Of a stretch of DNA of 64,000 nucleotides, positions 1 through 18,492 are shown one piece after another. Below the pieces are notes generated by a model. That model did no database searches. It was given only the letters and a program-made list of their open reading frames with translations, and was not told the DNA's origin. How positions within the stretch are numbered: the first letter of the stretch is position 1; each line of letters starts with the position of its first letter. The position numbers were made by a program, and so were the translations under genes. Source of the DNA: an uncultured Burkholderiales bacterium (lineage in GTDB: Bacteria; Pseudomonadota; Gammaproteobacteria; Burkholderiales; Burkholderiaceae_C); NCBI GenBank assembly GCA_903830725.1, contig CAIKVH010000101.1:2043-66042 (forward strand), read 5' to 3'.

Positions 1-760
1 TGAGGTCAACAAAGACCCCCTGCTTGTCGCCGCTACGCTCTCGTAAATGTAGTGTCCCCAAGTTAGCCGCCCCAGTGAGTTGTTTAAGCTTTGGGGAACG
101 ACTCACGACTGTATTTTGTAGGTCTGTTTCAAAAATAATGCTCTCAAGATTCACTGCAGCAGAGATTTCCAGTACGGCTAAGCTCGCACCCTTAAGTGCT
201 AGGGATCGCAAGTTGGTGATGTAAGGCAACAACATTACTTGAATAGGGTCGGGGAGTGACAAGTTCAATGATTGCAAACACGAGGTTTGATCTTCCAACA
301 AAACACATAAGTTAGCCTGGGGTTTATCCTTTAGCGAGGTATATGTATTTACGGGTCCAATCCAGGCCCCATTTAGCTTGGATAATGTCTGAGTCTCATA
401 CTTAAAGGTCCTCAACTCATCATTTCTAGTCCAACACGCATCCAAAGATGCGACGATCCCCTCGCAAATCAATTGGGGGGGGACGTCCCCCGAATCGATA
501 TGTATATATGCATTGCATCCTGGTGGTAAGACAATTTTGCGTAAATCTGGGCATCCCAGAATACATATGTGTACATCAACAGCAGCACAGTCTAAATAGA
601 TTTCTTTTAGGCCTTTGCATTTGTATAAATCCAAAGCTTTAAGATCTGCGCATCCGGCACGGATTACAGATAAGTCTTGGCTTGTTAGGGTGATGCCCCC
701 GCTTACACTAAGATGACTGCTAAACTCATGTGCGGTTGGATTTGAAGATAAATAAAGCAT
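1..760 (-). CDS. Leucine-rich-repeat-like protein, 5' part only (runs off the left edge)
   Basis: Hand translation of the minus strand from ATG at 760 stays open for 253 codons to base 1. It contains LxxLxLxx-type segments (LKALDLYKCKGLKEIYL, LRKIVLP, LQSLNLSLP, ITNLRSLALKGASLAVLEIS). Not in the ORF track because its stop lies outside the window. Confidence 0.7.
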   Translation of the reverse strand, partial: MLYLSSNPTAHEFSSHLSVSGGITLTSQDLSVIRAGCADLKALDLYKCKGLKEIYLDCAAVDVHICILGCPDLRKIVLPPGCNAYIHIDSGDVPPQLICEGIVASLDACWTRNDELRTFKYETQTLSKLNGAWIGPVNTYTSLKDKPQANLCVLLEDQTSCLQSLNLSLPDPIQVMLLPYITNLRSLALKGASLAVLEISAAVNLESIIFETDLQNTVVSRSPKLKQLTGAANLGTLHLRERSGDKQGVFVDL

Positions 761-1016
761 ATTTCGTCAGAGGCTGTTAGAGTGAAATTTATTACACCAT
801 CTCCCTTAGACATTTGGTGACTATCCCATGTAAGCATTCAGCAAGCTAATTAAAAGCCAACGGCAGTAGTACTAAAGTTGCCTCTCTTGAATCAAATCTC
901 CTTCAACGCGGATAGATATACAAAATATGTCGATCTATAGGTGCATACTTTAAAGAACTTACTGAGACGAAGCTCAGTTAAAAAATCTTTATAAGTCTCG
1001 CTTAGGAATTGAATCA

Positions 1017-3179
1017 ATGAGTCAAGTTAATTGTTTAACTGTAAACGATAACCCCCCCAAGAAAATGGAGGATGAATACGGCATTGAAATACGGGACACA
1101 GGTGTACCTGCAGTTTTTGATGCTTGTTGTAAAAAATGGGCGATTAAGGCATTGGTAGAAATGGGAGGCCACACTAATATCCTTCGTCTACAAAACTGTG
1201 CAGAGCCAGAATTACTTCGTTATTTGGGAATCCATGCGAATCTAGAAGAGTCGTATGAGCAAACTCTTGTCCTCAATGCAGTCAAAGAGAAATACAAAGA
1301 ATTGGTTAACCCAAACCAGCTTATCCCAGTCAATACTACGCTGAATAAAAATATTGATTGGCTTGGGAAGCAATTAGGATTATCTGAAAATGATCAAAAA
1401 ATATTGCTACTTTGTGTTTTAGAGAAACACAATATCTTTCTCAAACAATCTCTTGCCGCAATTGGTGAGATGAAAGAATCTAAATTGATGAGCGTTGTCT
1501 CTATCTTATTGGATATTCCACTGCGCTGCGTTTATGATGCATTTGCAGAACACGGTCTACTTACAAGAACGGGGTTGCTCACCACCATTACGTATTTAGA
1601 TTCTCTTGACTTTGGAAGTAAAGTGGATTTAATCAGTGGGTTGGCTGAACGATTGATGGAGGAACAAACTGATTTTTTTGATATCTTCAAGCACAATTTT
1701 GTTGCAGCTCCAAAACCATCTCTCAAGATTGAGGACTATGCACACGTCTCAAATAAAGTTGAAAATGCTGTGCATTTACTGAAAACCGCTATAAAAGAAA
1801 AGCGTATCGGTACCAACATCTTGTTGTTCTCAAAACCCGGCACAGGCAAGAGCGAATTGGCCAGAGTGATTGCTGAGGAAGTCGGTGCTGATGCATTTGA
1901 GGTCAGCGTGGGCGGTCGACCCGGTGAGCGCTATAGCAATGTGAACCGACTCTCAGCTTATATGCTGTCTCAGACCATCCTTGCCAAATCACCCAATAAG
2001 CTCATCATCTTTGACGAGTGTGAGGATATATCCACTAAACGCGACGATGAAGATCAGTTTATGAAACCACGACGCTCATCCGGCAAAGGGATGAAAGGGG
2101 CGATGAACCAATTGCTTGAGACCAACAATGTGCCATGCATCTTTATCACCAATGATCTGGGCTGTTTTCAGGACCCTGCATTTCTAAGACGCATTGATAT
2201 ATGCATTCAACTTGAGATTCCCCCATTAAGTGTTCGAGTCGATATGCTCAAAACATTCACAACTGGTATGCAAGTTTCTGAGGAGTGGTGTAAGCAAACG
2301 GCCTCAAATGAATCAATTTCTCCTGCAATGATGAGCAAAGCGGTCAATGTCGCGAACGCTATTCAGGCATCAAGCAAGAATTCATTGGCCGAGCAAGTTC
2401 TAAGCGAACTGCTTGACTCCTCCCTTAAAGCCCAATCTATTCAAGTAAAGCCCAAAAAATCTCAATCCAACGCCCTAAACTACAACCTTGACTACGTCAA
2501 CACTGATGTAAATTTAAAAGAGATCACAGAATCATTAAAAACCCACGCCTGCGCTCGAATATTGCTTTACGGAGTTAGTGGCTCGGGCAAATCCGCTTAC
2601 GCTTTGCACCTTGCTGAATCAATTGGTAAACGCGCCATTATTAAACAAGCCTCCGATATATTTTCAAAGTACCTTGGGGATACAGAAAAATGCATTGCTC
2701 AAATGTTCTCGGAGGCAAAAGAAGAAAGTGCAGTGCTCATACTTGACGAAGCGGACAGTTACTTAAGAGACAGAACCCAGGGTCTCAAGAGCTTTGAGAT
2801 AACCATTGTTAATGAGATGCTCACACAAATGGAAGCGTTTGAAGGTATCTTCATTGCCACAACCAATTTGATTGATTTTATTTGTCCCAGCGCCATGCGT
2901 CGATTTGATTTAAAGGCAAAGTTTGATTATTTAAAACCCAACGATGCAATCACAGTCTTTAATGAAACTTGTAAACTCTTAAATGTAGAACCGTATCTAG
3001 CCGATGACATAAGTGCTAGACAACTCACTCAACTAAGCCCGGGTGATTTTTCTGTGGTTTTCCGTCAAGCGAAATTCAAAAAAATAACGACTTACCAACA
3101 AGTTTTAAAAATACTTGAACAAGAAAAATCAATAAAAAATCTTACTCTAAATTCTAAAATGGGATTTTTAACGAACTAA
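1017..3179 (+). CDS. Tandem AAA+ ATPase (two AAA modules, long N-terminal domain)
   Basis: Walker A SKPGTGKS with Walker B LIIFDECE and arginine-finger region FLRRID; second module GVSGSGKS, LILDEAD, AMRRFD. Confidence 0.9.
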   Translation: MSQVNCLTVNDNPPKKMEDEYGIEIRDTGVPAVFDACCKKWAIKALVEMGGHTNILRLQNCAEPELLRYLGIHANLEESYEQTLVLNAVKEKYKELVNPNQLIPVNTTLNKNIDWLGKQLGLSENDQKILLLCVLEKHNIFLKQSLAAIGEMKESKLMSVVSILLDIPLRCVYDAFAEHGLLTRTGLLTTITYLDSLDFGSKVDLISGLAERLMEEQTDFFDIFKHNFVAAPKPSLKIEDYAHVSNKVENAVHLLKTAIKEKRIGTNILLFSKPGTGKSELARVIAEEVGADAFEVSVGGRPGERYSNVNRLSAYMLSQTILAKSPNKLIIFDECEDISTKRDDEDQFMKPRRSSGKGMKGAMNQLLETNNVPCIFITNDLGCFQDPAFLRRIDICIQLEIPPLSVRVDMLKTFTTGMQVSEEWCKQTASNESISPAMMSKAVNVANAIQASSKNSLAEQVLSELLDSSLKAQSIQVKPKKSQSNALNYNLDYVNTDVNLKEITESLKTHACARILLYGVSGSGKSAYALHLAESIGKRAIIKQASDIFSKYLGDTEKCIAQMFSEAKEESAVLILDEADSYLRDRTQGLKSFEITIVNEMLTQMEAFEGIFIATTNLIDFICPSAMRRFDLKAKFDYLKPNDAITVFNETCKLLNVEPYLADDISARQLTQLSPGDFSVVFRQAKFKKITTYQQVLKILEQEKSIKNLTLNSKMGFLTN

Positions 3180-3201
3180 CACGAAGTGCTCTTTTAGCAG
3201 A

Positions 3202-4320
3202 TCAGTACATGTTAACTGCTGCTATCAAGTCATTTTTAACTCGGGCTTTAACAAATGCAGGAGAAATAACTTTAATATGTGTACTCATGCTGAGTATCCA
3301 GTAAATGAGTCTCTCGGTTAAAGGCACCGTTGCTTCTAAAAAGTACGCGCGCTCTGAATCTGGTAGGTCTGGGGAGGATTTTGGATCTACTTTAATGACC
3401 TGATCTTCGCTGAGCTTGGTCTCACGTATCCACTGAGTTGAGGCATCAACATGAAGTTTTAGCTCAATGGGCATACCAATTAATTCTTCATCAAAAGTGG
3501 GGTAACCTATACCCTTTCTAATATGTTTATCAATTGTAGGAATCGGAGTCGCTAGGTACTCACCTAGGGTAGTCTTTGCACTTGTGATTCGGTGCATTAA
3601 ATAATTTCTTAATTTTCCAGTTGTACCTCTTGAATTAGCCACCAAGTAACACCTAACCCCTTGTTGCAAGATCGCTTGGGGTTGAACCACCGTTGTTGAC
3701 TTGTGGTTGTACTCGATTTCTAGAAGCTCACCATTCAAAAGTGCTTCGTGAACAGTTTTCTCAATCTCGGGCAAAATTTCGGGACGGGTGAAGGCAATCG
3801 TCTCTGGCAGGTAGTAAATTCTCTCTAGCCAAGCGTCAGCAAGGGACTTTGATTTGATTTTAGAAGCCCCTTGTTCTCTTGCTATGGCTGCAGCCTCCGT
3901 TCCAGCGGCTTTGAAAAAGCCAGACAAAGCATTCCAACGGTTCTTGGGAAGTAAATCGATACCCTGTTTTTGTAGGACACCAAAAGCAATCATTTCGTCT
4001 GTAGTCAATCCACTGATCTTAAGAGGTGGAGCATCTTTTCTCCAATAGGCAGAGAACTCTTTGACGTCATTGAAAGGAGTTTTAACTGCTTTTCTTTTCT
4101 TGGCACTTGGTCTTTTTGCCTTTGGAGAGACAAGCACCAAATCTTCCCCTACAACATCCGCTAGTTTTATAAGATTGCGCTGTAGTTTTCGCGTGAATGA
4201 GGCGTCAGAGATATCCTCCTGGAATTCTGTTGCCAATGCCTTGAAAAAGTCAGATGTCTTTATTGGCCCCCTGTCTTGGCTTGGAATACGCTTTAACATT
4301 TCCCATTGCAATTTATCCAT
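3202..4320 (-). CDS. WYL-domain transcriptional regulator (HTH-WYL-WCX, BrxR-like)
   Basis: N-terminal HTH (RKLQRNLIKL); WYL core LEIEY...VVQPQAIL...YLVA...RNYLMHRITSA; WCX-like tail ETKLSEDQVI...LIYWILSMSTHIKVISP. Confidence 0.85.
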   Translation of the reverse strand: MDKLQWEMLKRIPSQDRGPIKTSDFFKALATEFQEDISDASFTRKLQRNLIKLADVVGEDLVLVSPKAKRPSAKKRKAVKTPFNDVKEFSAYWRKDAPPLKISGLTTDEMIAFGVLQKQGIDLLPKNRWNALSGFFKAAGTEAAAIAREQGASKIKSKSLADAWLERIYYLPETIAFTRPEILPEIEKTVHEALLNGELLEIEYNHKSTTVVQPQAILQQGVRCYLVANSRGTTGKLRNYLMHRITSAKTTLGEYLATPIPTIDKHIRKGIGYPTFDEELIGMPIELKLHVDASTQWIRETKLSEDQVIKVDPKSSPDLPDSERAYFLEATVPLTERLIYWILSMSTHIKVISPAFVKARVKNDLIAAVNMY

Positions 4321-4357
4321 CGGGGCACCTCCAAAATTTTTGAAATTATATCATTAT

Positions 4358-4372
4358 AGACATATTATGTCT
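4358..4372. promoter_or_regulatory. Palindrome AGACATA-T-TATGTCT, candidate WYL-regulator operator
   Basis: Perfect 7-1-7 inverted repeat in the 98-bp gap between the divergent WYL gene and the 4419 gene. Confidence 0.45.
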
Positions 4373-4418
4373 TTTAAGAATCATAGGATCTAGCAATCTA
4401 TGTAACAGACCCCCAAAT

Positions 4419-4976
4419 ATGAATTTCACAAACATAAAAGACACTAAGCAATGTGACATTCTTGCTTGTACCCTTTGGACAACCACTGAGCTTGAACTAT
4501 TTGAATATATATGGGATATTTGCAATCATTCGACCTCTCTCGACAGCACACTTTCTGTTTATGATTTACGAACTATTTTTGATACACAAATATTCCAAAC
4601 CTGTAGCGACCAAGAGCTTATTTATAGATTCAAAAGATTGAATAAATTCTTGATTGATCACCAATTGGTTAGAGAAGAGATTTTTATCTTCAGTATATTT
4701 ATTCCCTCAAATAGATTTTTCATTCAATTTAGGAAAACCAGTGATTGGCAGCAAATATCCAAAAATGTAAGAAAACAAATTAATGAATCATTAAAGATCG
4801 CCCTTAAGAGAAGAAAAATAGAAAGCAATACGGCAAAGCAGTCTGTTGCGGAATACTTTTTTTCATTCAAATCTTTACTTATTGATGATGTTTATAAATA
4901 TAAAAATATAGTCTACGAAAGGGTTGGGGAGGGAATTAATGTAGAAGAGGCATTTAAATGTTTCAAACTGATTTAA
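4419..4976 (+). CDS. Hypothetical protein (185 aa)
   Basis: Long ORF filling the gap between the WYL and nuclease-helicase genes; no motif recognised. Confidence 0.65.
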   Translation: MNFTNIKDTKQCDILACTLWTTTELELFEYIWDICNHSTSLDSTLSVYDLRTIFDTQIFQTCSDQELIYRFKRLNKFLIDHQLVREEIFIFSIFIPSNRFFIQFRKTSDWQQISKNVRKQINESLKIALKRRKIESNTAKQSVAEYFFSFKSLLIDDVYKYKNIVYERVGEGINVEEAFKCFKLI

Positions 4977-5045
4977 TCAGATTAAAATTGGTTCTCAAGA
5001 TAATCATTATTCACTATTACGCCCAGTTTTAATCAAGTCCATAAA

Positions 5046-8000
5046 ATGCAAAACAAACCTAACTATGGTCGTCTCTATTCTGCCTCTGACTTGGTCGCTT
5101 ATTTAGGATGTCACCACAGGACTGAGCTCGATCTAAAACGTCTGAATGGTTGGGACAAAAAACCCAAGGACGCTGATGATGCAACCCAACTCATTCAAAA
5201 CTACGGCGATAGGCATGAACGTGAATATCTACACGAGTTGATTGAGAGAGGCCTGAACGTTGTCCAGATTGACAAGGAAACGCCCCTAGAAATACAACTA
5301 CAACAAACGAATGCAGCCATTCGAGGCGGAGCAGATGTTATTTTTCAGGCAACATTGATTCAACCACCATTTATTGGATACGCTGATTTCTTTATCAAAG
5401 TCCCCGGTCAATCCAAATTAGGAGACTACCACTACGAAGTAATTGATACCAAACTTGCAAAAAGTAGTCGCGGCAAGTTTGTCATGCAACTTTGCTTATA
5501 CGCGGAAATGTTAGCCGAGATTCAAGGAGTAATGCCTAAACAATTGCACATAGTTTTAGGAAAACTTGATCCCGAGGAGGCCAGACTGAAGGGCCTAGAT
5601 CCTCATCGCTCCAACACCACAGTGCTTCAAACCCGTGATTATTACGATTACTTTAAAGTTACAAAAGAGCACTTTCTAAGCTATATAACTAAGCTCGAGC
5701 AGCAACCTCCAGTCGTTGCGACCCTCCCCGAACCCGTTAAAGCTTGTGATCTTTGCGGATGGACTGATCATTGCACTTCGTATTGGAGTGAAACAGATCA
5801 CCTGTCCCAAGTTGCTGGAATTAGAAAAGATCAAATTATTAAACTCCAATCTCAGGGCGTTCAGACGATGAAATCCTTGAGTGAATTAAATATCTCTATT
5901 CCTGGCATCTCTAATACCGTCCTTCATAGGATTAAAAAACAGGCTGAACTGCAACTTAACCCTAAAATTGCTCCTAAAACAGGTAAGGATGACCCACTTC
6001 GGTATGAATATTTACAGCCTAGTCCAACGAAGGCAACAGGCTTCGCCTTATTACCAGAACCCAACGACGGAGATCTTTATTTTGATATGGAGGGGTTTCC
6101 ATATGAGGTAGGTGGCCTTGAGTACTTGTTTGGGCTTGGATGGAGAGATCCTGCCAACCCCAAACACAAAGACGATCCTATTCAAGTCTCATTTACCCCT
6201 TTTTGGGCTCATAACCGTAAGGACGAGAAAAAAGCTTTTGAGGCCTTTATGGACCACGTCCAAGCGCATCTTAAAAAATATCCAAACGCTCATATCTACC
6301 ATTACGCACCCTACGAAAAAACAGCTATTCAACGCTTATCAAGTATTCACAATACCAGGACTGAGTTTAGAGATCAACTTCTACGTGAAGGACGTCTGGT
6401 TGACCTTTACAGAGTCGTAGCCAGTGGGCTTCAATTGGCGCTGCCTAGTTATTCCATCAAATATGTTGAGACCTACTATAGAAAGCCCCGTGAGGGTGAT
6501 GTGGTCAATGCGGGTGCAAGTATTGTTGAATACGAAAAGTTTCGCAACAGCGATAGTCAGGAGCTTCGAGACCAAATTCTCAAAGGCATCCAACAATACA
6601 ACGAGGATGATGTCGACTCAACTTGGCGACTTCATGTCTGGCTGGAGCACATTCGCCAAAACGATACACCTTACTTTGTCAAAGAAGTCGAACCCGTTCA
6701 GGAGGAAACCCAGGACGCACCTCACCTTGTAAGCGAACAACAGGTTGATGCCTGGCTCTTTGCACAGCCTGAGTCTTTAAAGATAAAGGCCACGGCTGTT
6801 GCAGAGCTTTTAAAGCTAATACTGAGTTTTTACTGGCGGGCTAAACTCCCATCCGTATGGCGTATGTTTCAAAAGCAAGAACTTGATGAAATTGAATTGA
6901 TTGAAGATAGAGAGTGCCTCGCATTGTTGGAGTACACGGGTAATTCGGAGAAAGTGGCAAATAGTGTTCGCTATTACTATACAGTTCCGGAGCAGGAATC
7001 AAAGTTATCAAATGGATCTAATGTTAAATGTCTCACAGATAATCTAGCTGCCAGTAACTTTGAATTCAATGAGGAGAAAGGAATTTGCTCATTTACTAGA
7101 TCAAATAGAAGTCCAGCTCCGCCTGCAATAGTCTCTCTCGCAATCAATGATGATGTCCCAACTAAGTCTAAACAGGACTCCATCGTTCGCTTTATTGCCT
7201 CTTTAGCTGCAAACCCTCTCCTTTCAAATCCTCGACTTGACATATTAATGCAGAACCTTCCCAGATTGTTGAATAAGAGCGAGGGGAGTTCGGTGGTTGA
7301 TGTTGCCAACACCGAGGAGCTAACCGCAGCCATCGAGAATCTTATGGACAGTTATCTCGTGATCCAGGGTCCTCCCGGAACCGGTAAGACCTTCAATGCA
7401 TCTAAAGCGATTACGCACTTACTCAAAATAGGGAAAAAAGTTGCCGTCACATCTAATAGCCACGCCGCAATCAACAATTTATTGAAAGCAACTTACGAAG
7501 AATTAAACGCTGTTGGTCTTAATAAGGTAATAGTTGCAACGAGAGAGGATAAGACTTTGCCAGAGGGTATTCAGGTTTGTTCCAGTCGACAGTTAGATTC
7601 CAGCATACATGATTTAAGCGGTGGGACAGCTTGGGCTTATTGCGTTGAAGAACAAACCGAGCAATGGGATTATTTATTTATTGATGAGGCAAGCCAAGTC
7701 TCTTTGGCAGACCTATTGGCCGCAGGATCTTGCGCCAAAAACATCATATTACTCGGCGATCAAATGCAATTGTCTCAACCCGTTCAGGGCACCCACCCTG
7801 GCAAAAGTGGATTGTCTTCATTGGATTATTTGATGAATGATCATCCAACTGTACCTAGTGATCGCGGAATATTCTTAGAGCACACTTACAGAATGCATCC
7901 GGAAATTTGCAAGCCTATATCTAGGGGTGTGTATGAGGACCGCTTGGGATCGAACCCTAACTGCGCAGTACAAAAAATAATACTAAACGAGCATGCTCAC

Positions 8001-8495
8001 TCTGCATTAAAGCCCTTTGGTATTTCCTATGTGCCGGTTGCGCACCAAGGAAGAAGTCAGGCCTCGAGCGAGGAAGCCAAGACAATTAAGGCAATTTACG
8101 AAAGTCTTTTAAAACAAAAATGGATGAATAAAGACGGAGAAACTCAACCGATCACTGAAAAAGACATTTTGATTGTTGCTCCCTATAATGCTCAACGAAT
8201 AGAGCTGAGAAAAGAATTAGGTGAGCTAGCCCGTATCGGCACCGTTGATAAATTTCAAGGCCAAGAGGCTGCGGTTGCAATTTTCTCCATGACCTCCTCA
8301 GATAGAGAAAATATTCCAAGGGGACTCGACTTTTTGTTCAGTAAAAATAGGCTCAATGTTGCCCTATCTAGAGCCAAGTGTTTAGCTCTTATGGTAGCTT
8401 CGCCAGAGTTAGAACAAATTGAATGCGATAAGGTTGATGATATGAAACTACTCAATTTTTACACTCAAATCATCAATGCATCTACTCATACTTAA
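5046..8495 (+). CDS. TM0106-family RecB/Cas4-like nuclease fused to RNase H-like domain and UPF1/DNA2-like SF1 helicase
   Basis: PD-(D/E)xK motif GYADFFIK...VIDTKLA; Cys pattern C20...CDLCGWTDHC; HhH-like DHLSQVAGI; RNase H-like YFDMEG/YHYAPYE/VDLY/YNEDDV; helicase motifs QGPPGTGKT, DEASQ, LGDQMQL, YRMHPEI, APYNAQ, TVDKFQGQE, RLNVALSRAK. Confidence 0.92.
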   Translation: MQNKPNYGRLYSASDLVAYLGCHHRTELDLKRLNGWDKKPKDADDATQLIQNYGDRHEREYLHELIERGLNVVQIDKETPLEIQLQQTNAAIRGGADVIFQATLIQPPFIGYADFFIKVPGQSKLGDYHYEVIDTKLAKSSRGKFVMQLCLYAEMLAEIQGVMPKQLHIVLGKLDPEEARLKGLDPHRSNTTVLQTRDYYDYFKVTKEHFLSYITKLEQQPPVVATLPEPVKACDLCGWTDHCTSYWSETDHLSQVAGIRKDQIIKLQSQGVQTMKSLSELNISIPGISNTVLHRIKKQAELQLNPKIAPKTGKDDPLRYEYLQPSPTKATGFALLPEPNDGDLYFDMEGFPYEVGGLEYLFGLGWRDPANPKHKDDPIQVSFTPFWAHNRKDEKKAFEAFMDHVQAHLKKYPNAHIYHYAPYEKTAIQRLSSIHNTRTEFRDQLLREGRLVDLYRVVASGLQLALPSYSIKYVETYYRKPREGDVVNAGASIVEYEKFRNSDSQELRDQILKGIQQYNEDDVDSTWRLHVWLEHIRQNDTPYFVKEVEPVQEETQDAPHLVSEQQVDAWLFAQPESLKIKATAVAELLKLILSFYWRAKLPSVWRMFQKQELDEIELIEDRECLALLEYTGNSEKVANSVRYYYTVPEQESKLSNGSNVKCLTDNLAASNFEFNEEKGICSFTRSNRSPAPPAIVSLAINDDVPTKSKQDSIVRFIASLAANPLLSNPRLDILMQNLPRLLNKSEGSSVVDVANTEELTAAIENLMDSYLVIQGPPGTGKTFNASKAITHLLKIGKKVAVTSNSHAAINNLLKATYEELNAVGLNKVIVATREDKTLPEGIQVCSSRQLDSSIHDLSGGTAWAYCVEEQTEQWDYLFIDEASQVSLADLLAAGSCAKNIILLGDQMQLSQPVQGTHPGKSGLSSLDYLMNDHPTVPSDRGIFLEHTYRMHPEICKPISRGVYEDRLGSNPNCAVQKIILNEHAHSALKPFGISYVPVAHQGRSQASSEEAKTIKAIYESLLKQKWMNKDGETQPITEKDILIVAPYNAQRIELRKELGELARIGTVDKFQGQEAAVAIFSMTSSDRENIPRGLDFLFSKNRLNVALSRAKCLALMVASPELEQIECDKVDDMKLLNFYTQIINASTHT

Positions 8496-8500
8496 AAATA

Positions 8501-9157
8501 ATGCTCAATACCACCTACTTTAAGAGCTGTCTTATTGGCATTATTTTGCTTATCACCAACTTAGCTCCCTGCTACTCAGCAAGTTTCAAGTGTGATTCCC
8601 ATCTTTCTGAGGCAGAGACACTGGTTTGCACGGACCGAGAACTGTCCGAAAAAGATTCCAATATGGCAGTTGTCTACAAAAAGCTCTTGAAAAGAGGTTT
8701 TTATGGGGAGTCCAAAAATGCGTTCAAGACGGAGCAACTTGCTTGGATTAAAACCAGAAACGCCTGTAAATCCAGCGTTTGTTTAAACGATATCTATGAT
8801 GAAAGAATTCAAATATTGGCTGAATACATGAAGCAGCCCTACGAAGTTAAGGTCTTACCCCCTGTTTGCAGTAAAACCTTTATCAGTGAAATTAGCGCTC
8901 GCCTGCCCTCTGAAGATCCCCAAACGAGAGGAACACGAATTAGCTACGCAAACGGATTGGGCGGGGTTTCCTATGACTATGTTGCTTCCATCTGGGATCG
9001 TTCGAGAATCAAAGATCCGGTACGGGTATGTCTTATCGCAAAGTATCTAAACTGTCCCAAAGGGGATGATCGTGGCAAAACCTTTGAAGGTACGAATTTA
9101 AGAACAGGTGAAAAATGGAAACTGAGTGATTCACAACACATTTGTAGTGGTGCTTAA
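8501..9157 (+). CDS. Secreted LprI (DUF1311)-like protein with Cys-rich C-terminal domain
   Basis: Signal peptide, then ASFKC...ETLVCTDRELSEKD...QLAWIKTRNAC...CLNDIYDERI (LprI pattern); C-terminus CPKGDDRG...NLRTG...HICSGA. Confidence 0.75.
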   Translation: MLNTTYFKSCLIGIILLITNLAPCYSASFKCDSHLSEAETLVCTDRELSEKDSNMAVVYKKLLKRGFYGESKNAFKTEQLAWIKTRNACKSSVCLNDIYDERIQILAEYMKQPYEVKVLPPVCSKTFISEISARLPSEDPQTRGTRISYANGLGGVSYDYVASIWDRSRIKDPVRVCLIAKYLNCPKGDDRGKTFEGTNLRTGEKWKLSDSQHICSGA

Positions 9158-9209
9158 CCCTCCCTGATACTTAATCTCTAAAAAAATCTATCAATTCAAC
9201 CCCATTTAT

Positions 9210-10136
9210 ATGTTCGCTAAATTATTTTATACACTTTTAATTTTTATTTCTGCATTTCAGTGTGTAAGCGCTGAAAACATTAAAAATGCCCGCGATCTAG
9301 ATCAATCATTTGAATTCACAAAACACCTAAACAACAAAAAAATATTCCTACAACAAATGGCTGGAGGTGACGTAGCGGATTGGAAAAATGACGGTCAAAT
9401 TGACAAAGGCAATGTTCATTTCAAGACCGTTTGGAAGACACTTCAAGACGTTGATAGAAAGGAGCAGCCTGCGGACACAGTTCATGTAGGATTAAAACGA
9501 ATTTCAGAGAAATCCAACGAGTACCTTGGATGGATCTACTGGGATCGTTACTACCCGTTTCAAAAAGCGGTACTTGAACCAAAGATTTCACTAGCCGTAT
9601 TTACTTTAAATCCGTTGGAGCAGACCTTTGAGCTGAACTCCAAAGTAATGCCACTGAACACATTGGTTTTGGGTCAAACTGAGAATTTTCTGGATTTTGA
9701 TTGGGCACCCTTTCGACTTGGCCCTTTGGGGCGAGCAATTGGAATAAGAACCTACAGGGTAGGTTGCGGTGCAGGCGGGAGTTTATGCTCCAATGAACTT
9801 ATTCGATTATTTGCCATTCAAGAGCCCAATATAAGAGAGGTTTTTATATCAACAGTAGGCTATTACGGAGATTACGGCGGGGAATGGAATAAGGACCAAA
9901 CCAGACAGCATTGGGTTGAGGAGCTCAATGGAATACTAAACATCAAAGTAGCCGATAAAAATCAAATGCCTGTGCTAGTTCTTCGGGCAAAATTAAGGAA
10001 GAAGTGGCTGACCAGGAAATTCATCTGGGACAGGAGACCCGACGGGTCATTTCACTTTGAAACCAATGACTCAGAAATATTCCCACAAGTTCATAAGTTC
10101 GAATCTCTAGACGATCCCCGTTGGTCAAAGAATTAG
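9210..10136 (+). CDS. Secreted hypothetical protein (PA3715/immunity-like resemblance)
   Basis: N-terminal signal peptide; segment DFDWAPFRLGPLGRAIGIRT resembles PA3715-type proteins (recalled from memory, not searched). Confidence 0.6.
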   Translation: MFAKLFYTLLIFISAFQCVSAENIKNARDLDQSFEFTKHLNNKKIFLQQMAGGDVADWKNDGQIDKGNVHFKTVWKTLQDVDRKEQPADTVHVGLKRISEKSNEYLGWIYWDRYYPFQKAVLEPKISLAVFTLNPLEQTFELNSKVMPLNTLVLGQTENFLDFDWAPFRLGPLGRAIGIRTYRVGCGAGGSLCSNELIRLFAIQEPNIREVFISTVGYYGDYGGEWNKDQTRQHWVEELNGILNIKVADKNQMPVLVLRAKLRKKWLTRKFIWDRRPDGSFHFETNDSEIFPQVHKFESLDDPRWSKN

Positions 10137-10165
10137 CATTCCTAATTTTTTCAAATCAAATATTA

Positions 10166-10765
10166 ATGCACCACAGTCTCATTTCTGCAGTTCTACTCCT
10201 TCTAATTGTCTTAGATCCCTTTGGTTCACTGCCTATTTATATTGCGTCTATGAGCGCAGTACCCAACAGTAGAAAATTATTCGTAGCCCTGCGTGAGAGT
10301 GCGATTGCATTTTCTATGTTGTTGCTTTTTATGCTGGGTGGTGAGAAATTCTTGACCGTGATGCATCTAACAGAGCGATCCCTGGCGGTTTCTGGGGGTG
10401 TCATCCTATTTATTATTGCTATTCGCATGATTTTTGGAGAACCAGGAGGAGGACTTGCCGCATCAGACCCTACTCAAGAGCCGTTCATTGTGCCTTTAGC
10501 TATTCCCATGTTGGCGGGTCCCTCTGCAATGGCAACTGTATTATTGATGGCCTCAACGGAGTCGGACAATGTACTCGTTTGGATTGTTGCTCTAGGTATA
10601 ACTATCGCAATTTCAGCCTTGGTTTTGGTCTGCGCTGAGCGAATACGACAGATTGTTGGCTCTGCCGTAGTCGAGGCTAGTCAAAAGTTAATGGGCCTGG
10701 TTTTGGCTGCAATTGCAACTGAGATGATTCTGTCAGGGCTCAGGCAATATTTCCAAGCTGAGTGA
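10166..10765 (+). CDS. MarC family inner-membrane protein
   Basis: LDPFGSLP, GGVILFIIAIRMIF, IVPLAIPMLAGPSAMATVLL, KLMGLVLAAIA motifs; likely start at ATG 10166. Confidence 0.92.
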   Translation: MHHSLISAVLLLLIVLDPFGSLPIYIASMSAVPNSRKLFVALRESAIAFSMLLLFMLGGEKFLTVMHLTERSLAVSGGVILFIIAIRMIFGEPGGGLAASDPTQEPFIVPLAIPMLAGPSAMATVLLMASTESDNVLVWIVALGITIAISALVLVCAERIRQIVGSAVVEASQKLMGLVLAAIATEMILSGLRQYFQAE

Positions 10766-10783
10766 AGAGCGCAAGCCGTCTAA

Positions 10784-11503
10784 TTAGACAGCCAACTTGT
10801 CTGGAAGCAGGCGATCGTATTCGGTCTTTACGACTTGGTAACACTCGCAGGTCCGTCGCTCTAAGCCTGGACGGTCCAAGATTTTAATATGCCCACGGGC
10901 ATAAGAGATAAGTCCAGCCTTTTGTACTTTGAGAGCAGCCTCTGTGACCCCTTCTCGCCTTACCCCAAGCATATTTGCGATCAGCTCCTGCGTCATCACC
11001 AAATCGTTAGACGTGAGTCTATCTAAACTCAGTAACAACCATCTACAAAACTGCTGATCAAGGGTGTGATGGCGGTTGCAAACAGCTGTTTGCGACATTT
11101 GAGTAATTAATGCCTGTGTATAACGTAGAAACAAATGCATTACGGGGCCGGCTTTACCGAATTCTTCCATAATAACACTGGAATTAATTCTGTAACTCTT
11201 CCCAGCGCTTTGAACAACAGCGCTGCTGAGAGTACTTTGTCCGCCCATAAAAAGCGAGATACCAACACAACCTTCATTGCCGACAACTGCAATCTCAGCG
11301 GAGGCCCCGTTCTCAAGACCGTAAAGTAGGGAAACAATTGCAGTAGTGGGGAAGTAAACGTGAGCCAACTTATCACCGGATTCAGATAAAACCAACCCAA
11401 GAGGCATATCAAAGGGCTGGATGAAAGGCAATAGCCTTTCCCACTCAGGCGACGGAAGGGATTTGAAAAGCCAGTTTTGCTCTTTTAACGGACGTTTATC
11501 CAA
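10784..11503 (-). CDS. Crp/Fnr family transcriptional regulator
   Basis: cNMP-binding-like domain (VYFPTTAIVSL, VGNEGCVG) and HTH MTQELIANMLGVRREGVTEAA. Confidence 0.95.
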   Translation of the reverse strand: MDKRPLKEQNWLFKSLPSPEWERLLPFIQPFDMPLGLVLSESGDKLAHVYFPTTAIVSLLYGLENGASAEIAVVGNEGCVGISLFMGGQSTLSSAVVQSAGKSYRINSSVIMEEFGKAGPVMHLFLRYTQALITQMSQTAVCNRHHTLDQQFCRWLLLSLDRLTSNDLVMTQELIANMLGVRREGVTEAALKVQKAGLISYARGHIKILDRPGLERRTCECYQVVKTEYDRLLPDKLAV

Positions 11504-11565
11504 TTTGGTTCCTAAAGATTAATATTTAATTGATATGCTAAATATATTATTTAAAATGCTTTGCG

Positions 11566-11585
11566 TATGTGCGCTATCGAACATA
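11566..11585. promoter_or_regulatory. Imperfect palindrome TATGTGCG-CTAT-CGAACATA, candidate Crp/Fnr-family operator
   Basis: 8-4-8 inverted repeat with one mismatch in the divergent intergenic region next to the Crp/Fnr gene. Confidence 0.4.
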
Positions 11586-11684
11586 TGATAGATTTGGAGA
11601 ATGTTGTTTCAAAAAGCAGCAACTCCAAATCAAAACAACGAGATCTGGGCCAAAAATAGTTAGTAGGTTTTTAAAGGATAAACA

Positions 11685-13544
11685 ATGGCAAACTGGGTAA
11701 CAAACGAATTAAAAGTCACTGGCGACGTTACTGATCTAAACATCTTTGCCAACGACATCGGCAACCCCCAAAACCCATTTAATTTCAAAAAACTAAGAGA
11801 GTTGTTCGGAGCGTCATGGGACAGTCGAGATGAGGGACGCATCCCCAAACTGTCAATCGATAAAAAGAAACAAATACTGACCTATACAGTGGACTCTGTA
11901 TACGAGCCCTTGAAAGAATTGTTTTCAGCAATTGCTCAAAAATATCCTAAATTAAATTTTGAACTCTTCTATATAGAGGAGGGGCCAGCATTTGCTGGAT
12001 TGATTATTTATGAAAACGGGGAAGAGTCTGCAAGTGCAGTAACTGATCAATTTGAATATAACAGAAATGATGAGGTAAAACTGAAGAAACTAAAAGAAAC
12101 GTTGCGCACTTGTTTAAGACCTCTGGCCTCTGAGTCAATTGATCCTGATAATGAGGATCCTTTTGTTAATTTAAAGCAATTATTAGATCAAAAATCGATG
12201 GATTTTCTTTTGCCAATTTTTACAAGTGCTGCTGATCCTAATGCTTCAATTGAAGAAACAAGGAATTTGATTAAAGATACGGCTACAAGTATTTTATGGA
12301 AAGTTTTTCCGCTAATTCCTGAGCACTGCTTAGACGAGAACCTCGCAACACATCTTTGCAACATTAGTCAAAGTTTCCTGGCCTCATTACCTCCATCATA
12401 CAAAAACAAAAGCTTTTACGAAAAGTTCGTACAGCAAAGCAATTCCGGCGGAGGCGAACTCTATTACATTCCAGAAGAATTTCTTACAAAAGCAATGATT
12501 GATTTCACCTTAAATAGAACAATCAAATCATTTCGATTTTTAAGAAGAAAATTTTTAACTCAAGAAATATGTCTACAAGCGTATAAAAATGATTTCGAAT
12601 CCATCCAATACATGGATAGTATTTATATAACCAAGGAGATGGCCTTAGATGTTATTGAAAAACATATTGACCTTACCTGTTATTTGCCGGAGCAATATTT
12701 ATCTGAGGAAGCTATCACAAAATATATTACGACCTATACAGGCTTCAATCCAACAAAAATAATGAAAGGAAATGCTGATAATGACTTTAGTATCGCCTAT
12801 TTGGACTGGATTCCTAATAAATACTTTACTAAAAATGTACTGCATGCTATCGCCACTTATCACCCCATGTCGCTTAGGGACGTCCCAATTGAATACGTAT
12901 CGGAAGAAATTCTATTGAAAGGCGTTCAAGGTAAAAATGTTAATGCTAATTTTTTATTCAAATACGGCGCTGACGATAAACGCGTTCTCTGGCCACCCAA
13001 AACTCTTTTGACCAAGAAGTTGTTAGAAGAAGCTGTGTTTCACCTTCCACACACATTGGAAAATCTCTCAGACAAGGTGAAGGAAGATATTTTTTCCGAT
13101 CATTCTTTTTTGCTAAGATTTCAAGAAAACTATTTGATAAATTCTTCCAAATTTACCAGAAACAAATTTAGCTTTTGCTTCACCTACCTACCCCATAATG
13201 CATTAGACGAAAAATTTGTTTCGGAATTAATTACCTCTACCTTCTTAGAATCACGACATGAATTTAACGAAGATGCTGCGCGTCAAATACCAAATCACAT
13301 CCTCTCTACTTCATTTATTTCAAAGTGTATTGATTTGATAGCTACTAAATTAGACAAGGACAGGCATATCTCCGACTTTATTCTCTACCCCTGTTATAAG
13401 GGTAATAAATTTTGCTACGACACGTGGATTCCAAAACAATTTCTTACAAATGACCTGCTAGAAAAAATCACTCTGCTTGATCCCCATGCTCTAAAAAAAC
13501 TTCCCAAATCGTTGGTCAAAAAAGTAAATAAAAAAAATATTTGA
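11685..13544 (+). CDS. Hypothetical protein: N-terminal YubB/DUF1281-like ferredoxin-fold domain plus C-terminal DUF4116-like helical repeats
   Basis: Start MANWVTNELKVTG...FELFYIEEGPAFAG resembles the YubB-like family; about 10 repeats of type xP-x-x-(F/Y)-(L/I)-T-x-E (IPEEFLTKAM, RRKFLTQEIC, LPEQYLSEEA, IPNKYFTKNV, VPIEYVSEEI, IPKQFLTNDL). Confidence 0.65.
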   Translation: MANWVTNELKVTGDVTDLNIFANDIGNPQNPFNFKKLRELFGASWDSRDEGRIPKLSIDKKKQILTYTVDSVYEPLKELFSAIAQKYPKLNFELFYIEEGPAFAGLIIYENGEESASAVTDQFEYNRNDEVKLKKLKETLRTCLRPLASESIDPDNEDPFVNLKQLLDQKSMDFLLPIFTSAADPNASIEETRNLIKDTATSILWKVFPLIPEHCLDENLATHLCNISQSFLASLPPSYKNKSFYEKFVQQSNSGGGELYYIPEEFLTKAMIDFTLNRTIKSFRFLRRKFLTQEICLQAYKNDFESIQYMDSIYITKEMALDVIEKHIDLTCYLPEQYLSEEAITKYITTYTGFNPTKIMKGNADNDFSIAYLDWIPNKYFTKNVLHAIATYHPMSLRDVPIEYVSEEILLKGVQGKNVNANFLFKYGADDKRVLWPPKTLLTKKLLEEAVFHLPHTLENLSDKVKEDIFSDHSFLLRFQENYLINSSKFTRNKFSFCFTYLPHNALDEKFVSELITSTFLESRHEFNEDAARQIPNHILSTSFISKCIDLIATKLDKDRHISDFILYPCYKGNKFCYDTWIPKQFLTNDLLEKITLLDPHALKKLPKSLVKKVNKKNI

Positions 13545-13607
13545 TGAAGAGTTAATTTCGAAGTACCCTCGAAATGGGAAAATACCATCTATTATTAAAA
13601 CTATTTC

Positions 13608-13671
13608 TAATCTCCTTATCTCCTTATCTCCTTATCTCCTTATCTCCTAATCTCCTAATCTCCTAATCTCC
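13608..13671. repeat. 8-bp tandem repeat, 8 copies (T[T/A]ATCTCC)
   Basis: Read directly: TAATCTCC, TTATCTCC x4, TAATCTCC x3. Confidence 0.95.
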
Positions 13672-13887
13672 TGCACCCCTCAACCTAAAGCTCTCAATAG
13701 CAGGGCTTGATCCGCTGACATTGTGGTATTGAAATAAATACGCTAGCTTCTTAAAACCACTGTAAATACTTACATTATTGTTGTTATTTTTATATATTTA
13801 CTAGCTAATTTTTTGAGCTTTTGAACCACTAGCTCATTCTATGATCTTGTGGGAGCCGATCATCACTTCAACAACAAATAACTGGAG

Positions 13888-14577
13888 TTGAAGGTGGCAG
13901 TTTTAAAGTATCCATTTTATATCGCAGGTATCGTCTTCGCTGTACTGAGTATTTACTCGGTCAGCACTGAGAAGCCGCGCCAGTACAAAGCTAAACCCAT
14001 AGCGGAAGAACCTGTCAAAACTGTAGATGTACCGTCCCCTACTGAGTCGCCCACCAATTCGCTTGCTAAGGTTACCCCTTCATCTGAAGCCCTGAAGGGC
14101 TCTACTCCATCTCCCACCGGAGCGAGCCCGACTGCTCCAGTAAAGCAAGCTAATGAGCCAAGCCCCCCGCCTCAGAATGCTCCCAATGCTGGCGCAACAA
14201 ATGTTGTTATTGGCTACTCAAATAATGACGTTGGAGGCAAGATGGTTTTAACACTTAATAAATGTGAGAAATCTACTGGGAGTGTTGCCTATACCACCGC
14301 CCCTGACGGAAAGGTTGACTATGGGTGCTGGAACTTTGATGAGCTATTCATCGTCATTAAATGGGAAAAAGCGGGAATCAATAACTATACCTACGACAAG
14401 TTTGTTGATTACACGACAAACGAGCGCCTGACCCCAAAGCAATTGTTCGCAGCCACTCAAAAGCCACTCCCCACAACATCAGCTATACAGACTACCCCAT
14501 CAGTTCCTGCTACATCTGCTGCTTCTATTTCGGCTACATCTAACGCAACAAGAAACGCAAATGGAGTTAAAAAATGA
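13888..14577 (+). CDS. Membrane-anchored hypothetical protein with Pro/Thr/Ser-rich linkers
   Basis: TTG start, N-terminal hydrophobic helix, PST-rich linkers flanking a compact two-Cys domain (GGKMVLTLNKC...YGCW). Confidence 0.7.
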   Translation: MKVAVLKYPFYIAGIVFAVLSIYSVSTEKPRQYKAKPIAEEPVKTVDVPSPTESPTNSLAKVTPSSEALKGSTPSPTGASPTAPVKQANEPSPPPQNAPNAGATNVVIGYSNNDVGGKMVLTLNKCEKSTGSVAYTTAPDGKVDYGCWNFDELFIVIKWEKAGINNYTYDKFVDYTTNERLTPKQLFAATQKPLPTTSAIQTTPSVPATSAASISATSNATRNANGVKK

Positions 14578-14616
14578 AAAATTCTCTAAATCTATATTAT
14601 TCGAGTGAGGTGAGTT

Positions 14617-15861: not shown

Positions 15862-16593
15862 ATGAAAAATCATAACCTCAACACACGCAATTTAATCACT
15901 CAACTCTACTTTGGTCTTATTTTTCTATGCCTGACTTTCCTCACTTTCTCCTCCTTTGCAGGAGATAAATACTGTCAAAAGAGCGGAACGGCAAAGACGT
16001 TTGATATTCATATTTACGGTAATACCTATAAAGATCCCAACGCCAAGAGACAGATGGCACAAGGTCTTACTGATCTTTACCGCGGAGTTGCTGTCGGTGA
16101 CCGCATAAAGGTCTATAACCACAACGCAACGGGTTATAACTTGAGTATGGATCAATGTGTTCCCGGATGTCCAGAGGTATCGTTCGTTGAAAGCTTGGTC
16201 GGAACATCGTGCTCCACAGAAGTGGCTAAACGTGACCGTAAAGCTTTCAACCAGCGCTTTGCTGAAGCGACTATGTCCGAAATTAACCGGGATAACTCAA
16301 GTTACGACATCTTTAAGGCAATTCAAGATTTGAATGATGTCTACAAAGGTGAGCACACGAACAATATCGTTGCCGTCGCAATATCAATGATTCCAGACGG
16401 AATCAATCCAACAGATCCCAATGCTTTTAATAAGTTCTACGTAACAAACGTTCCAAATTTGAATTTAGCCCTTGAATTCCCCCCCGTATGTACGGTCGGC
16501 ACTTCACCTAACTCTGAGGTTCTTAAATTTTGGAAGGAGGTCTTCACCTTAAAGCATGTGAAATTTGATTTCAAACCATGCAACAAAGATTAA
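15862..16593 (+). CDS. Secreted hypothetical protein, possibly degenerate vWA-like fold
   Basis: Signal peptide; paired Cys; SYDIFKAIQDL, VAVAISMI and FWKEVF segments recall vWA-like partners of membrane coiled-coil proteins (inference). ATG directly abuts the upstream TAA. Confidence 0.65.
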   Translation: MKNHNLNTRNLITQLYFGLIFLCLTFLTFSSFAGDKYCQKSGTAKTFDIHIYGNTYKDPNAKRQMAQGLTDLYRGVAVGDRIKVYNHNATGYNLSMDQCVPGCPEVSFVESLVGTSCSTEVAKRDRKAFNQRFAEATMSEINRDNSSYDIFKAIQDLNDVYKGEHTNNIVAVAISMIPDGINPTDPNAFNKFYVTNVPNLNLALEFPPVCTVGTSPNSEVLKFWKEVFTLKHVKFDFKPCNKD

Positions 16594-16605
16594 TAAGGAT
16601 TATTT

Positions 16606-18488: not shown

Positions 18489-18492
18489 GCAC

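Follow-up and report, generated by a model that had tools for sequence, protein, structure and literature searches.

A WYL-regulated locus joining a Cdc48-like tandem AAA+ ATPase with a TM0106 nuclease-helicase in an uncultured Burkholderiales bacterium: a candidate inducible defence module

What is achieved by placing a tandem AAA+ ATPase, a WYL-type regulator, a small orphan gene and a large nuclease-helicase side by side? The four genes, here called AAA720, WYL372, orf185 and HelNuc1149 after their lengths in amino acids (aa), lie near one end of a 64,000-nucleotide (nt) stretch of contig CAIKVH010000101.1, assigned to an uncultured Burkholderiales bacterium and derived from a lake-water metagenome; this whole stretch is referred to as the window. 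An initial annotation, made from the letters of the window, took the four genes for a candidate anti-phage module under a BrxR/CapW-type regulator. Its four open reading frames (ORFs) are indeed separated by gaps of 22, 98 and 69 bp, the setting is AT-rich as it had noted (G+C 0.385-0.44 over 1-10 kb versus 0.46-0.50 over 24-62 kb), and Pfam and NCBIfam uphold its domain labels (tandem AAA+, WYL and Cas4-like nuclease-helicase). What it did not give is the strand. WYL372 is encoded on the minus strand, so that its gene converges with AAA720 and diverges from orf185 and HelNuc1149, and the four genes therefore form at least three transcription units (Table 1).

The description that fits best is of a WYL regulon of the DriD type that joins a Cdc48-like unfoldase to a TM0106 nuclease-helicase, and the locus is kin to the WYL-regulated nuclease/helicase islands. 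We put the chance at slightly better than even that positions 1-8495 belong to a regulon which is governed by WYL, spreads horizontally and can be induced to defend the cell against the DNA of phages or plasmids. Two other explanations are followed through the evidence below: that the genes respond to damage in the DNA of the host itself, and that they are independent units that happen to be neighbours in an island.

HelNuc1149 is, by its sequence, a bona fide full-length member of the TM0106/COG2251 family. It matches TIGR03491 (TM0106 RecB-like nuclease) over aa 12-533 with 269.5 bits against a cut-off of 97.45, and Pfam recognizes RNase_H_2 (PF13482) and the SF1 helicase domains AAA_11 and AAA_12. 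All three of its modules are apparently active, as the residues invariant in 20 relatives include the Fe-S cysteines C22/C234/C237/C243, the nuclease residues D114, E131, D134, K136, Q148 and Y152, the exonuclease-like residues D347, E349 and D522, and the helicase motifs GPPGTGKT (775-782) and DEASQ (880-884). The helicase resembles Upf1, IGHMBP2, Sen1 and Dna2, matching residues 640-807 of the last. The family comprises more than 5000 sequence clusters from hundreds of species and many phyla, and 73 plasmids carry it; no full-length relative was found in phage genomes. The TM0106 architecture has been catalogued and left uncharacterised (PMC3985635).

The combination of an Fe-S PD-(D/E)xK nuclease with an SF1 motor is shared with the end-processing nucleases Dna2, AddB, RecB and Cas4, and the resemblance to Dna2 and AddB counts in favour of a repair function. 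HelNuc1149 differs from these enzymes in its extra 3'-5' exonuclease-like domain, its Upf1-like motor, its accessory distribution and its defence-island contexts. As a single large helicase-nuclease protein in a defence neighbourhood it also recalls Nhi, the Mokosh proteins MkoA and MkoC, Hhe and the UvrD-Cas4 fusions, at whose loci WYL regulators are sometimes found (PMC5704561), although its domain order and helicase clade differ from theirs. It is not a Mokosh protein, for its match to MkoA and MkoC is confined to the C-terminal lobe of the helicase (aa 869-1132) and there is no PLD domain. The matches to Nhi (E 0.007), Hhe (24.7 versus 2000 bits, E 7e-6), ProA (32.6 versus 1500) and PLuB (53.9 versus 999) all miss their curated cut-offs.

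To judge from its motifs, AAA720 is a classic-clade AAA+ ATPase with two modules in tandem, of the Cdc48/VAT type, and both rings are catalytically intact. Pfam finds two PF00004 AAA domains, D1 at about aa 262-430 and D2 at about aa 505-700, and the closest solved relatives are VAT, Rix7, Cdc48 and p97. Across 28 relatives, the Walker A residues (G275/G277/K278 in D1, G519/G522/G524/K525 in D2) are invariant, as are Walker B (D333-E334 and D577-E578) and the arginine fingers (R391-R392 and R628-R629). D2 has a K-Y-L-G pore loop (with G554 and E557 invariant too), and D1 is without a canonical aromatic one. With its Walker motifs, arginine fingers and pore loop, AAA720 falls among the two-module, type II AAA+ proteins of the classic clade. 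It falls outside the Cdc48 subfamily proper, scoring 83.1 against a cut-off of 802.65 for TIGR01243, and its N-terminal aa 1-230 match no family, N-domain families included, in the domain search.

Ring ATPases that work with swappable effectors are known from the defence systems IetAS, SIR2-HerA and DUF4297-HerA. AAA720 and its relatives are similar to these in being a ring ATPase with alternative effectors, here SIR2, DUF2779 or TM0106, and IetA resembles D2 of AAA720 (E 7e-30). They differ in that AAA720 is of the classic-clade Cdc48/VAT type rather than the HerA/FtsK type, in the absence of the IetS protease and in that WYL control is regular here. The match of AAA720 to IteA is confined to D2 and misses its cut-off (86.5 versus 510 bits), and neither positions 1-14000 of the window nor the upstream 5.7 kb carry a protease gene.

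WYL372 belongs to the wHTH-WYL-WCX transcription factors, having a WYL followed by a WCX domain, a full-length fold match and a palindrome in the divergent promoter. The winged helix-turn-helix (wHTH), encoded at about nt 4126-4320, is followed by a helical bundle, then by the WYL domain (PF13280, 31.0 bits, cut-off 21.8; aa 188-249, nt 3574-3759) and the WCX domain (PF25583, 30.3 bits, cut-off 23.9; aa 285-365, nt 3226-3468); Pfam gives no HTH match. The predicted recognition helix has an invariant R48, a low-confidence insert of about 40 residues lies behind the wHTH, and a GGAGG ribosome-binding site precedes the ATG by 7-8 nt. An AlphaFold2 (AF2) model (pLDDT 63, aa 1-65 at 70-87) aligns in Foldseek over its full length to DriD (8tp8, E 5.9e-10) and also to PafBC, CapW and BrxR, the last two at E 2.5e-7 to 1e-4. 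The broader family profile of WYL372 matches DriD at E 8e-69, then PafBC, BrxR and CapW; the sequence alone and the close-clade profile matched no solved structure. The label BrxR/CapW-type is therefore not retained, since DriD and PafBC outrank CapW and BrxR in profile and fold, the operator is of the DriD/DdaA type and no recognized system is adjacent.

Two regulators that switch on a non-SOS damage response when activated by single-stranded DNA (ssDNA), DriD of Caulobacter and DdaA of Acinetobacter, share the domain order of WYL372 and a GxC-N7-GxC palindrome, AT-rich at its centre, in a bidirectional promoter (PMC10853764, PMC13010146); in fold, DriD comes closest. The operon that DriD activates divergently from its own gene begins with a small uncharacterised gene (PMC13004042), just as orf185 is the small first divergent gene here. 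A nuclease-helicase was considered as the divergent partner of DriD and rejected: the Caulobacter partner is the small unknown gene with a TonB-dependent transporter. Unlike DriD and DdaA, WYL372 has the insert of about 40 residues, its box lies over a near-consensus -10, which would suit repression, and its gene sits beside those for an unfoldase and a nuclease-helicase instead of recA or cell-division inhibitors. CapW and BrxR, repressors of CBASS, BREX and other islands, are of the same superfamily and are likewise encoded divergently beside a defence-type operon, with operators that overlap promoters, but they rank lower and no CBASS or BREX genes are found in the window. The conserved residues Y204, R223 and Y225 of the WYL domain are compatible with ssDNA binding by WYL372.

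This kinship is part of the case for a damage response, as DriD and DdaA activate recA and other repair genes (PMC9186387, PMC13010146). In a Sphingomonas locus (L021; comparative loci are given by L numbers), the WYL gene divergent from the nuclease-helicase encodes a full-length DriD homologue (E 1e-48), and the shared spacer contains GACA-N5-TGTC, the core of the DriD box. Against this, ssDNA is sensed by WYL defence repressors as well, CapW among them (PMC11662680).

The candidate operator of WYL372, at 4357-4372 in the WYL372-orf185 spacer, is the sole exact GACA-N5-TGTC in the 64-kb window, which speaks against a broad regulon within it. The palindrome is kept in the orthologous spacer of L089, the closest relative of the locus, where the flanks have diverged. 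The DriD box, CGAC-N7-GTCG (PMC10853764), and the Acinetobacter DdaA box, CGACAATATGTGTCG (PMC13010146), have the same geometry. When up to two mismatches are allowed, the 64 kb contain two matches only, the second being TAGACATTTGGTGACT in the bidirectional promoter region between AAA720 and a 602-aa gene, and both are thus in promoter regions of the module. The orthologous region of L089 has an exact GACATTATTTGTC. Upstream of AAA720 there is also a 24-nt block, GATATACAAAATATGTCGATCTAT, that is near-identical between the window and L089 in an otherwise diverged spacer.

L089 has three exact boxes where 0.22 would be expected, all of them in promoter regions of its cluster: between WYL and orf186, between a 608-aa gene and AAA, and upstream of an operon for a TPR protein, ClpS and an M41 peptidase. 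Among the fetched loci, the box is 3.6-fold denser in those with a WYL gene. It is found about 10-100 nt (mostly about 50-70 nt) upstream of AAA genes in eight loci, and also ahead of nuclease-helicase genes (L021, L027), of a small ORF that precedes a nuclease-helicase (L095) and of a DUF2779 gene (L097). orf185 and HelNuc1149, between which no terminator-like or promoter-like site was found, are very probably under the control of WYL372. AAA720 is probably controlled likewise. No RNA run contains the locus.

Three promoter-like sequences with 10/12 matches to consensus are the best in 600-9300, and two of them sit back-to-back in the 98-bp spacer. The box covers the -10 element of one promoter, which is close to consensus, as well as the opposing promoter's -35, a position that suits a CapW/BrxR-style repressor released by ssDNA (cf. 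PMC11662680). The activator relatives of WYL372 bind over the -35 position (PMC13004042), and the alternative promoter TAGACA-16-AATCAT would fit such an activator mode. Derepression is slightly favoured, because the box covers core promoter elements.

orf185 is the first gene of the transcription unit divergent from WYL372. It had been counted in with the module, of which it is no conserved part: it has 3 representatives among 1.84 billion cluster representatives. It is nevertheless a real gene, since its length is conserved and the representatives are 42-46% identical. Its orthologue in L089 (orf186) is syntenic and 42% identical, and is the only match returned by jackhmmer over all fetched ORFs; Pfam, PADLOC and NCBIfam give none. 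The AF2 model (pLDDT 60) has an H-E-H-H-E-E topology, for which Foldseek returns only non-significant winged-helix proteins (E 0.39 or worse), and the fold is possibly a winged helix followed by a long helix. A weak likeness links the C-terminal 52 aa to the small ORF that L095 has between WYL and nuclease-helicase (E 5e-6 in a pairwise comparison); jackhmmer does not recover it. No similarity was found to the 197-aa ORF that precedes the nuclease-helicase of Pseudomonas luteola.

Do these parts belong together elsewhere? The neighbourhoods of the nuclease-helicase were compared in 78 species-representative genome loci and those of the tandem AAA in 80 metagenome loci, which form 54 clusters at 60% identity. 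Neighbours were clustered on non-overlapping ORFs, excluding the spurious antisense ORFs of high-GC genomes; the counts are raw and ignore phylogeny, and many of the comparative loci are truncated by contig ends. The gene-neighbourhood check proposed with the initial annotation showed the parts together in other genomes too, distant lineages included, though with their order rearranged. The nuclease-helicase has a WYL gene in its flank in 19 of the 78 genome loci and directly adjacent in 10, and 9 of the 10 WYL genes within one gene upstream of it are divergent. On the AAA side, a WYL gene is in the flank of 25 of the 54 clusters and a Cas4-like nuclease in that of 13 (10 DUF2779, 5 TM0106). 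DUF2779 proteins have a Cas4 plus RNase-H-like architecture without the helicase (cf. PMC3985635). Their genes often follow the AAA immediately, and the order AAA-DUF2779-WYL is seen in L114, L122 and L123. AAAs that are at least 60% identical to each other adjoin either DUF2779 or a TM0106 nuclease-helicase, showing that effectors are swapped.

The pairing of AAA with nuclease-helicase takes at least six arrangements. The window and contig P0002 have AAA, a convergent WYL, orf185 and the nuclease-helicase, while L127 has AAA, WYL and then the nuclease-helicase. WYL, a small ORF and the nuclease-helicase precede AAA in L095 and L096, and in L003 (Limnohabitans) the nuclease-helicase has AAA nearby. 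The order in L086 and L088 is nuclease-helicase, McrBC, a 254-aa gene, ClpS and AAA. Finally, the two genes are divergent on plasmid NZ_CP044084.1 of the cultured Pseudomonas luteola strain FDAARGOS_637. SIR2 lies directly behind AAA in L099, L107 and L139, and GGACT beside it in L091. In L130 (6042-14400), AAA (+) and a convergent WYL (-) are followed by a divergent Cas9-Cas1-Cas2 that replaces orf185 and the nuclease-helicase, with SIR2, MoxR and DUF2201 upstream. The components are a modular network and not a fixed four-gene operon.

Several side observations concern these loci. L130 is laid out like the window, except that the effector position is taken by a type II CRISPR-Cas locus. The 254-aa gene of L086 and a 300-aa gene of L083 were tried as cryptic WYL proteins and rejected, no similarity being found. 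In L089, the operon mentioned above (2238-4915, minus strand) adjoins the AAA cluster; its exact WYL box is followed by genes for the TPR protein, for ClpS and for a stand-alone peptidase domain of the M41 (FtsH) type. ClpS is also found after AAA in L086 and before the nuclease-helicase in L083. The ClpS and M41 neighbours hint that in some versions the unfoldase delivers its substrates to a protease.

The nuclease-helicase family is found in defence contexts, as the initial annotation had expected: McrBC operons, BREX, ubiquitin-like operons, SIR2 and plasmids. McrB-McrC adjoins it in 11 of the 78 genomes and begins 1-36 nt behind its stop codon in four loci (L033, L048, L052 and the metagenome locus L086). 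Since McrBC plays no part in repair, coupling at this operon level stands against a repair function. A WYL gene is often divergent at these nuclease-helicase/McrBC loci (the four named and seven further genome loci). WYL, nuclease-helicase and McrBC appear to make up an undescribed operon type. Within 2.5 kb of the nuclease-helicase, a proximal set of 128 ORFs gives PADLOC matches to dGTPase, Cas3-like proteins, Wadjet JetC/D, BrxC, type I and III restriction-modification, LmuB and PDC candidates. The nuclease-helicase of Vibrio tubiashii p123 lies behind BREX with a TrlF ATPase, and a Piscirickettsia plasmid has SIR2 near it. On the Phenylobacterium plasmid NZ_CP101284.1 (L181, 2606-9339), it is the last gene of an operon with a multiubiquitin-domain protein, E2/UBC, ThiF E1, DUF6527 and a hypothetical protein, and there has the look of an effector in a bacterial system akin to ubiquitination. 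Common neighbours also include toxin-antitoxin genes, integrases and transposases.

None of this amounts to a named system. As had been surmised, the PADLOC and NCBIfam matches (IetA/IteA, Mokosh, Nhi, Hhe, ProA, PLuB) are partial or far below cut-off. No description of this gene combination was found in the searchable literature, with TM0106, DUF2779 and WYL plus AAA/SIR2/Cas4 present only as domain-level mentions, and none was found there of links from TM0106 to WYL, McrBC or AAA.

L089 shows which parts are constant. It is 70% identical in AAA, 67% in WYL and 42% in orf186, with synteny on both sides, and it is without the 8.7-kb segment 4977-13750 of the window. That segment holds the nuclease-helicase, LprI-like, PA3715-like, MarC, a Crp-like regulator and a 619-aa protein. 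Strains X5 and X9, about 99% identical and from two other freshwater or marine metagenome runs, keep 1-9200 and differ over 9200-13755. The right-hand breakpoint, at about 13755, is common to all comparisons, and from the indel in L089 and the replacements in the strains 4977 to about 13755 is a hotspot with exchangeable cargo. The stable core in this lineage is the MoxR-VWA operon, AAA, WYL and orf185, to which the nuclease-helicase is added as an effector that recurs but can be dispensed with.

The MoxR-VWA operon, of which the 602-aa gene is the head, leaves the window at its start and is divergent from AAA720. On the source contig (L001) it consists of the 602-aa gene, a MoxR-like AAA gene (421 aa), a DUF2201 VWA/metallopeptidase gene (433 aa) and a 159-aa gene. 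It is probably part of the regulon of AAA720, and the module probably reaches upstream of 1017. This block is also found beside AAA in L089, at 51-76% identity, and homologues of MoxR and DUF2201 lie beside AAA in L130, there with SIR2. Upstream of the window, L001 1-6525 carries a DUF2779 Cas4-like nuclease gene (511 aa) and then the 159-aa/DUF2201/MoxR-like AAA/602-aa operon. The recurrence of DUF2201, the MoxR-like AAA and the 602/608-aa genes in L089, and of DUF2201 and MoxR in L130, suggests a larger composite system.

How might such a module act in defence? Dimeric WYL372 would bind the palindrome that overlaps the divergent promoters and, probably, the weaker site upstream of AAA720 too. 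When ssDNA from phage replication, DNA breaks or foreign linear DNA binds the WYL domain, transcription would be switched, slightly more likely by derepression than by activation in the manner of DriD. orf185, the nuclease-helicase and the AAA unfoldase would then be induced. The nuclease-helicase may load on ssDNA ends or flaps, translocate 5'-3' by its Upf1/Dna2-like motor and degrade DNA with its Cas4-like Fe-S nuclease and 3'-5' exonuclease-like domain. AAA720 would remodel or remove a protein, whether one that protects DNA ends, another protein of the invader or components of the system itself, in the last case as a reset. Defence is favoured because of the recurrent co-occurrence, the placement of the operators, the defence-island company, the host's own recBCD and the variable low-G+C setting.

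A number of findings weigh against this. No validated defence hidden Markov model is satisfied, and the closest characterized relatives of WYL372 and its operator type are damage-response activators (DriD, DdaA, PafBC), not defence repressors. AAA is absent from 77 of the 78 nuclease-helicase genome loci, the exception being the Limnohabitans locus, and about 30 more distant AAA relatives, which serve as an internal background, are without WYL and nuclease. L089 keeps AAA, WYL and orf186 without the nuclease-helicase, the indel that carries the latter in the window holds ordinary genes as well, and orf185 is restricted to its lineage. The box upstream of AAA720 has two mismatches in the window. 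Repair-type neighbours also occur, namely SbcCD behind AAA in L110 and umuDC nearby on a Methylomonas plasmid, and the gene calls of the comparative loci are crude longest-ORF calls. The initial interpretation is upheld in part: the lack of a named system, the co-occurrence, a candidate WYL operator in the promoter region and the defence contexts stand, and a closest kinship to BrxR/CapW, a constant nuclease-helicase and a conserved orf185 do not.

The likelier rival is an accessory module for damage response and repair. WYL372, as a DriD/DdaA-type activator, would sense ssDNA from damage to the host's own DNA and induce a Dna2/AddB-like end-processing enzyme and a Cdc48-like unfoldase, the latter to clear damaged DNA of proteins or to reset the response. 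There is a parallel in PafBC, a mycobacterial WYL regulator genetically linked to AAA unfoldase-dependent Pup-proteasome proteolysis in an ssDNA-triggered response (PMC6789036). WYL and an AAA unfoldase are common to both, and L089 adds ClpS and the M41 peptidase behind a WYL box. The AAA family is a different one, though, there are no Pup, PafA or proteasome genes, and the window is without ClpS or a protease. Besides the regulator, its operator and the small divergent gene, the neighbours SbcCD and umuDC favour this explanation, as does dGTPase, a gene of the DdaA regulon that recurs beside the nuclease-helicase. It sits poorly with the patchy, often plasmid-borne distribution, with the variable neighbourhood and with neighbours such as SIR2, Cas9, BREX, ubiquitin-like operons, Wadjet and restriction-modification, and the host already has RecBCD. 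We consider it rather unlikely but still a serious alternative. Independent island neighbours (AAA720 with the MoxR-VWA operon, a WYL-orf185 pair, and a stand-alone cargo nuclease-helicase that landed behind orf185) are quite improbable. In their favour, L089 has AAA, WYL and orf186 but not the nuclease-helicase, AAA720 and WYL372 are convergent and not co-transcribed, the stretch 9200-13755 is swapped in strains from other lakes and most nuclease-helicases are found without AAA, in McrBC, ubiquitin-like or TrlF contexts. Against them, AAA is associated with a nuclease-helicase or DUF2779 in 13 of 54 clusters and at least six gene orders, WYL boxes precede both AAA and nuclease genes, orf185 runs into HelNuc1149 without an intervening promoter- or terminator-like site, and X5 and X9 keep 1-9200 intact despite the change of cargo downstream.

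To return to defence, the locus is one of a broader, as yet undescribed family of AAA-WYL-nuclease/SIR2 cassettes with a probable role in defence. A bolder version of this proposal, which we hold only tentatively and would sooner doubt than accept, is a wide family of ssDNA-triggered immune cassettes. These would have a constant DriD-type WYL regulator and Cdc48-like unfoldase and a swappable effector (DUF2779, TM0106 or SIR2). Unfolding would be obligatory in them, for example to strip protective proteins from the DNA ends of the invader or to license the nuclease, and TM0106 would be a general-purpose effector that also serves McrBC, ubiquitin-like and BREX-adjacent operons.

Table 1. Genes, protein domains and candidate regulatory sites at the locus (window coordinates).
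Feature	Position	Strand	Remarks
Tandem AAA+ ATPase AAA720	1017-3179	+	ORF, 720 aa
WYL regulator WYL372	3202-4320	-	ORF, 372 aa
orf185	4419-4976	+	ORF, 185 aa
Nuclease-helicase HelNuc1149	5046-8495	+	ORF, 1149 aa
Cas4-like Fe-S PD-(D/E)xK nuclease	~5079-5825	+	HelNuc1149 domain
RNase-H-fold 3'-5' exonuclease-like domain	6075-6644	+	HelNuc1149, PF13482
Upf1/Dna2-like SF1B helicase	7308-8441	+	HelNuc1149, AAA_11/AAA_12
602-aa gene, first 253 codons	1..760	-	ORF, family not known; rest on source contig L001
Candidate WYL372 operator TAGACATATTATGTCT	4357-4372	.	TAGACAT-ATT-ATGTCT; GACA-N5-TGTC, i.e. GxC-N7-GxC, AT-rich centre
Degenerate WYL box TAGACATTTGGTGACT	807-822	.	2 mismatches; bidirectional promoter region, 602-aa gene/AAA720
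Conserved 24-nt block GATATACAAAATATGTCGATCTAT	915-938	.	upstream of AAA720; contains half-box ATGTCG
Promoter-like TTGAAA-17-TATTAT	4340-4368	+	consensus match only
Alternative promoter-like TAGACA-16-AATCAT	4357-4384	+	consensus match only
Promoter-like AAGACA-17-TATAAT, upstream TG	4373-4345	-	consensus match only

The remainder of the window offers a few further observations. The host RecBCD is encoded at 23505-32691 on the minus strand, 15 kb from HelNuc1149, with recD (647 aa), a recB-like gene (1217 aa, UvrD helicase and PDDEXK nuclease) and, presumably as recC, a gene of 1198 aa. An operon of eight genes at 13888-21415 (+) encodes proteins of 229, 414, 243, 468 and 159 aa, a 233-aa LpoB-like protein, a 401-aa protein and, last, a 359-aa WYL regulator (HTH_DeoR, WYL and WCX), the second in the window and a stronger match than WYL372. 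Its 159-aa product equals DUF1425 in L089, most of its members are without a family, and the operon is wholly kept in L089 at 54-89% identity. It is unusual for a lipoprotein-rich operon to end in a WYL regulator gene. The 619-aa ORF of the hotspot (11685-13544, +) lies in the lowest-G+C stretch of the window (0.352); its DUF4116 match is sub-threshold, PADLOC and NCBIfam give no match and no homologue was found among the fetched loci. Rfam and tRNA scans of the window returned no matches.

If the defence reading is true, TM0106/COG2251, a very large uncharacterised family, would gain a function, and a Cdc48-type unfoldase with swappable nucleases or SIR2 would be a new architecture. The operator logic of DriD and DdaA, hitherto linked to damage responses, would then drive mobile immune modules as well, and the line between damage response and immunity would be blurred. 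If repair is true instead, many bacteria would have a second, horizontally transferable and SOS-independent pathway of end processing. On either reading, the locus is a compact regulon with a defined candidate operator, and an instance in a cultured strain is available on the plasmid of Pseudomonas luteola FDAARGOS_637.

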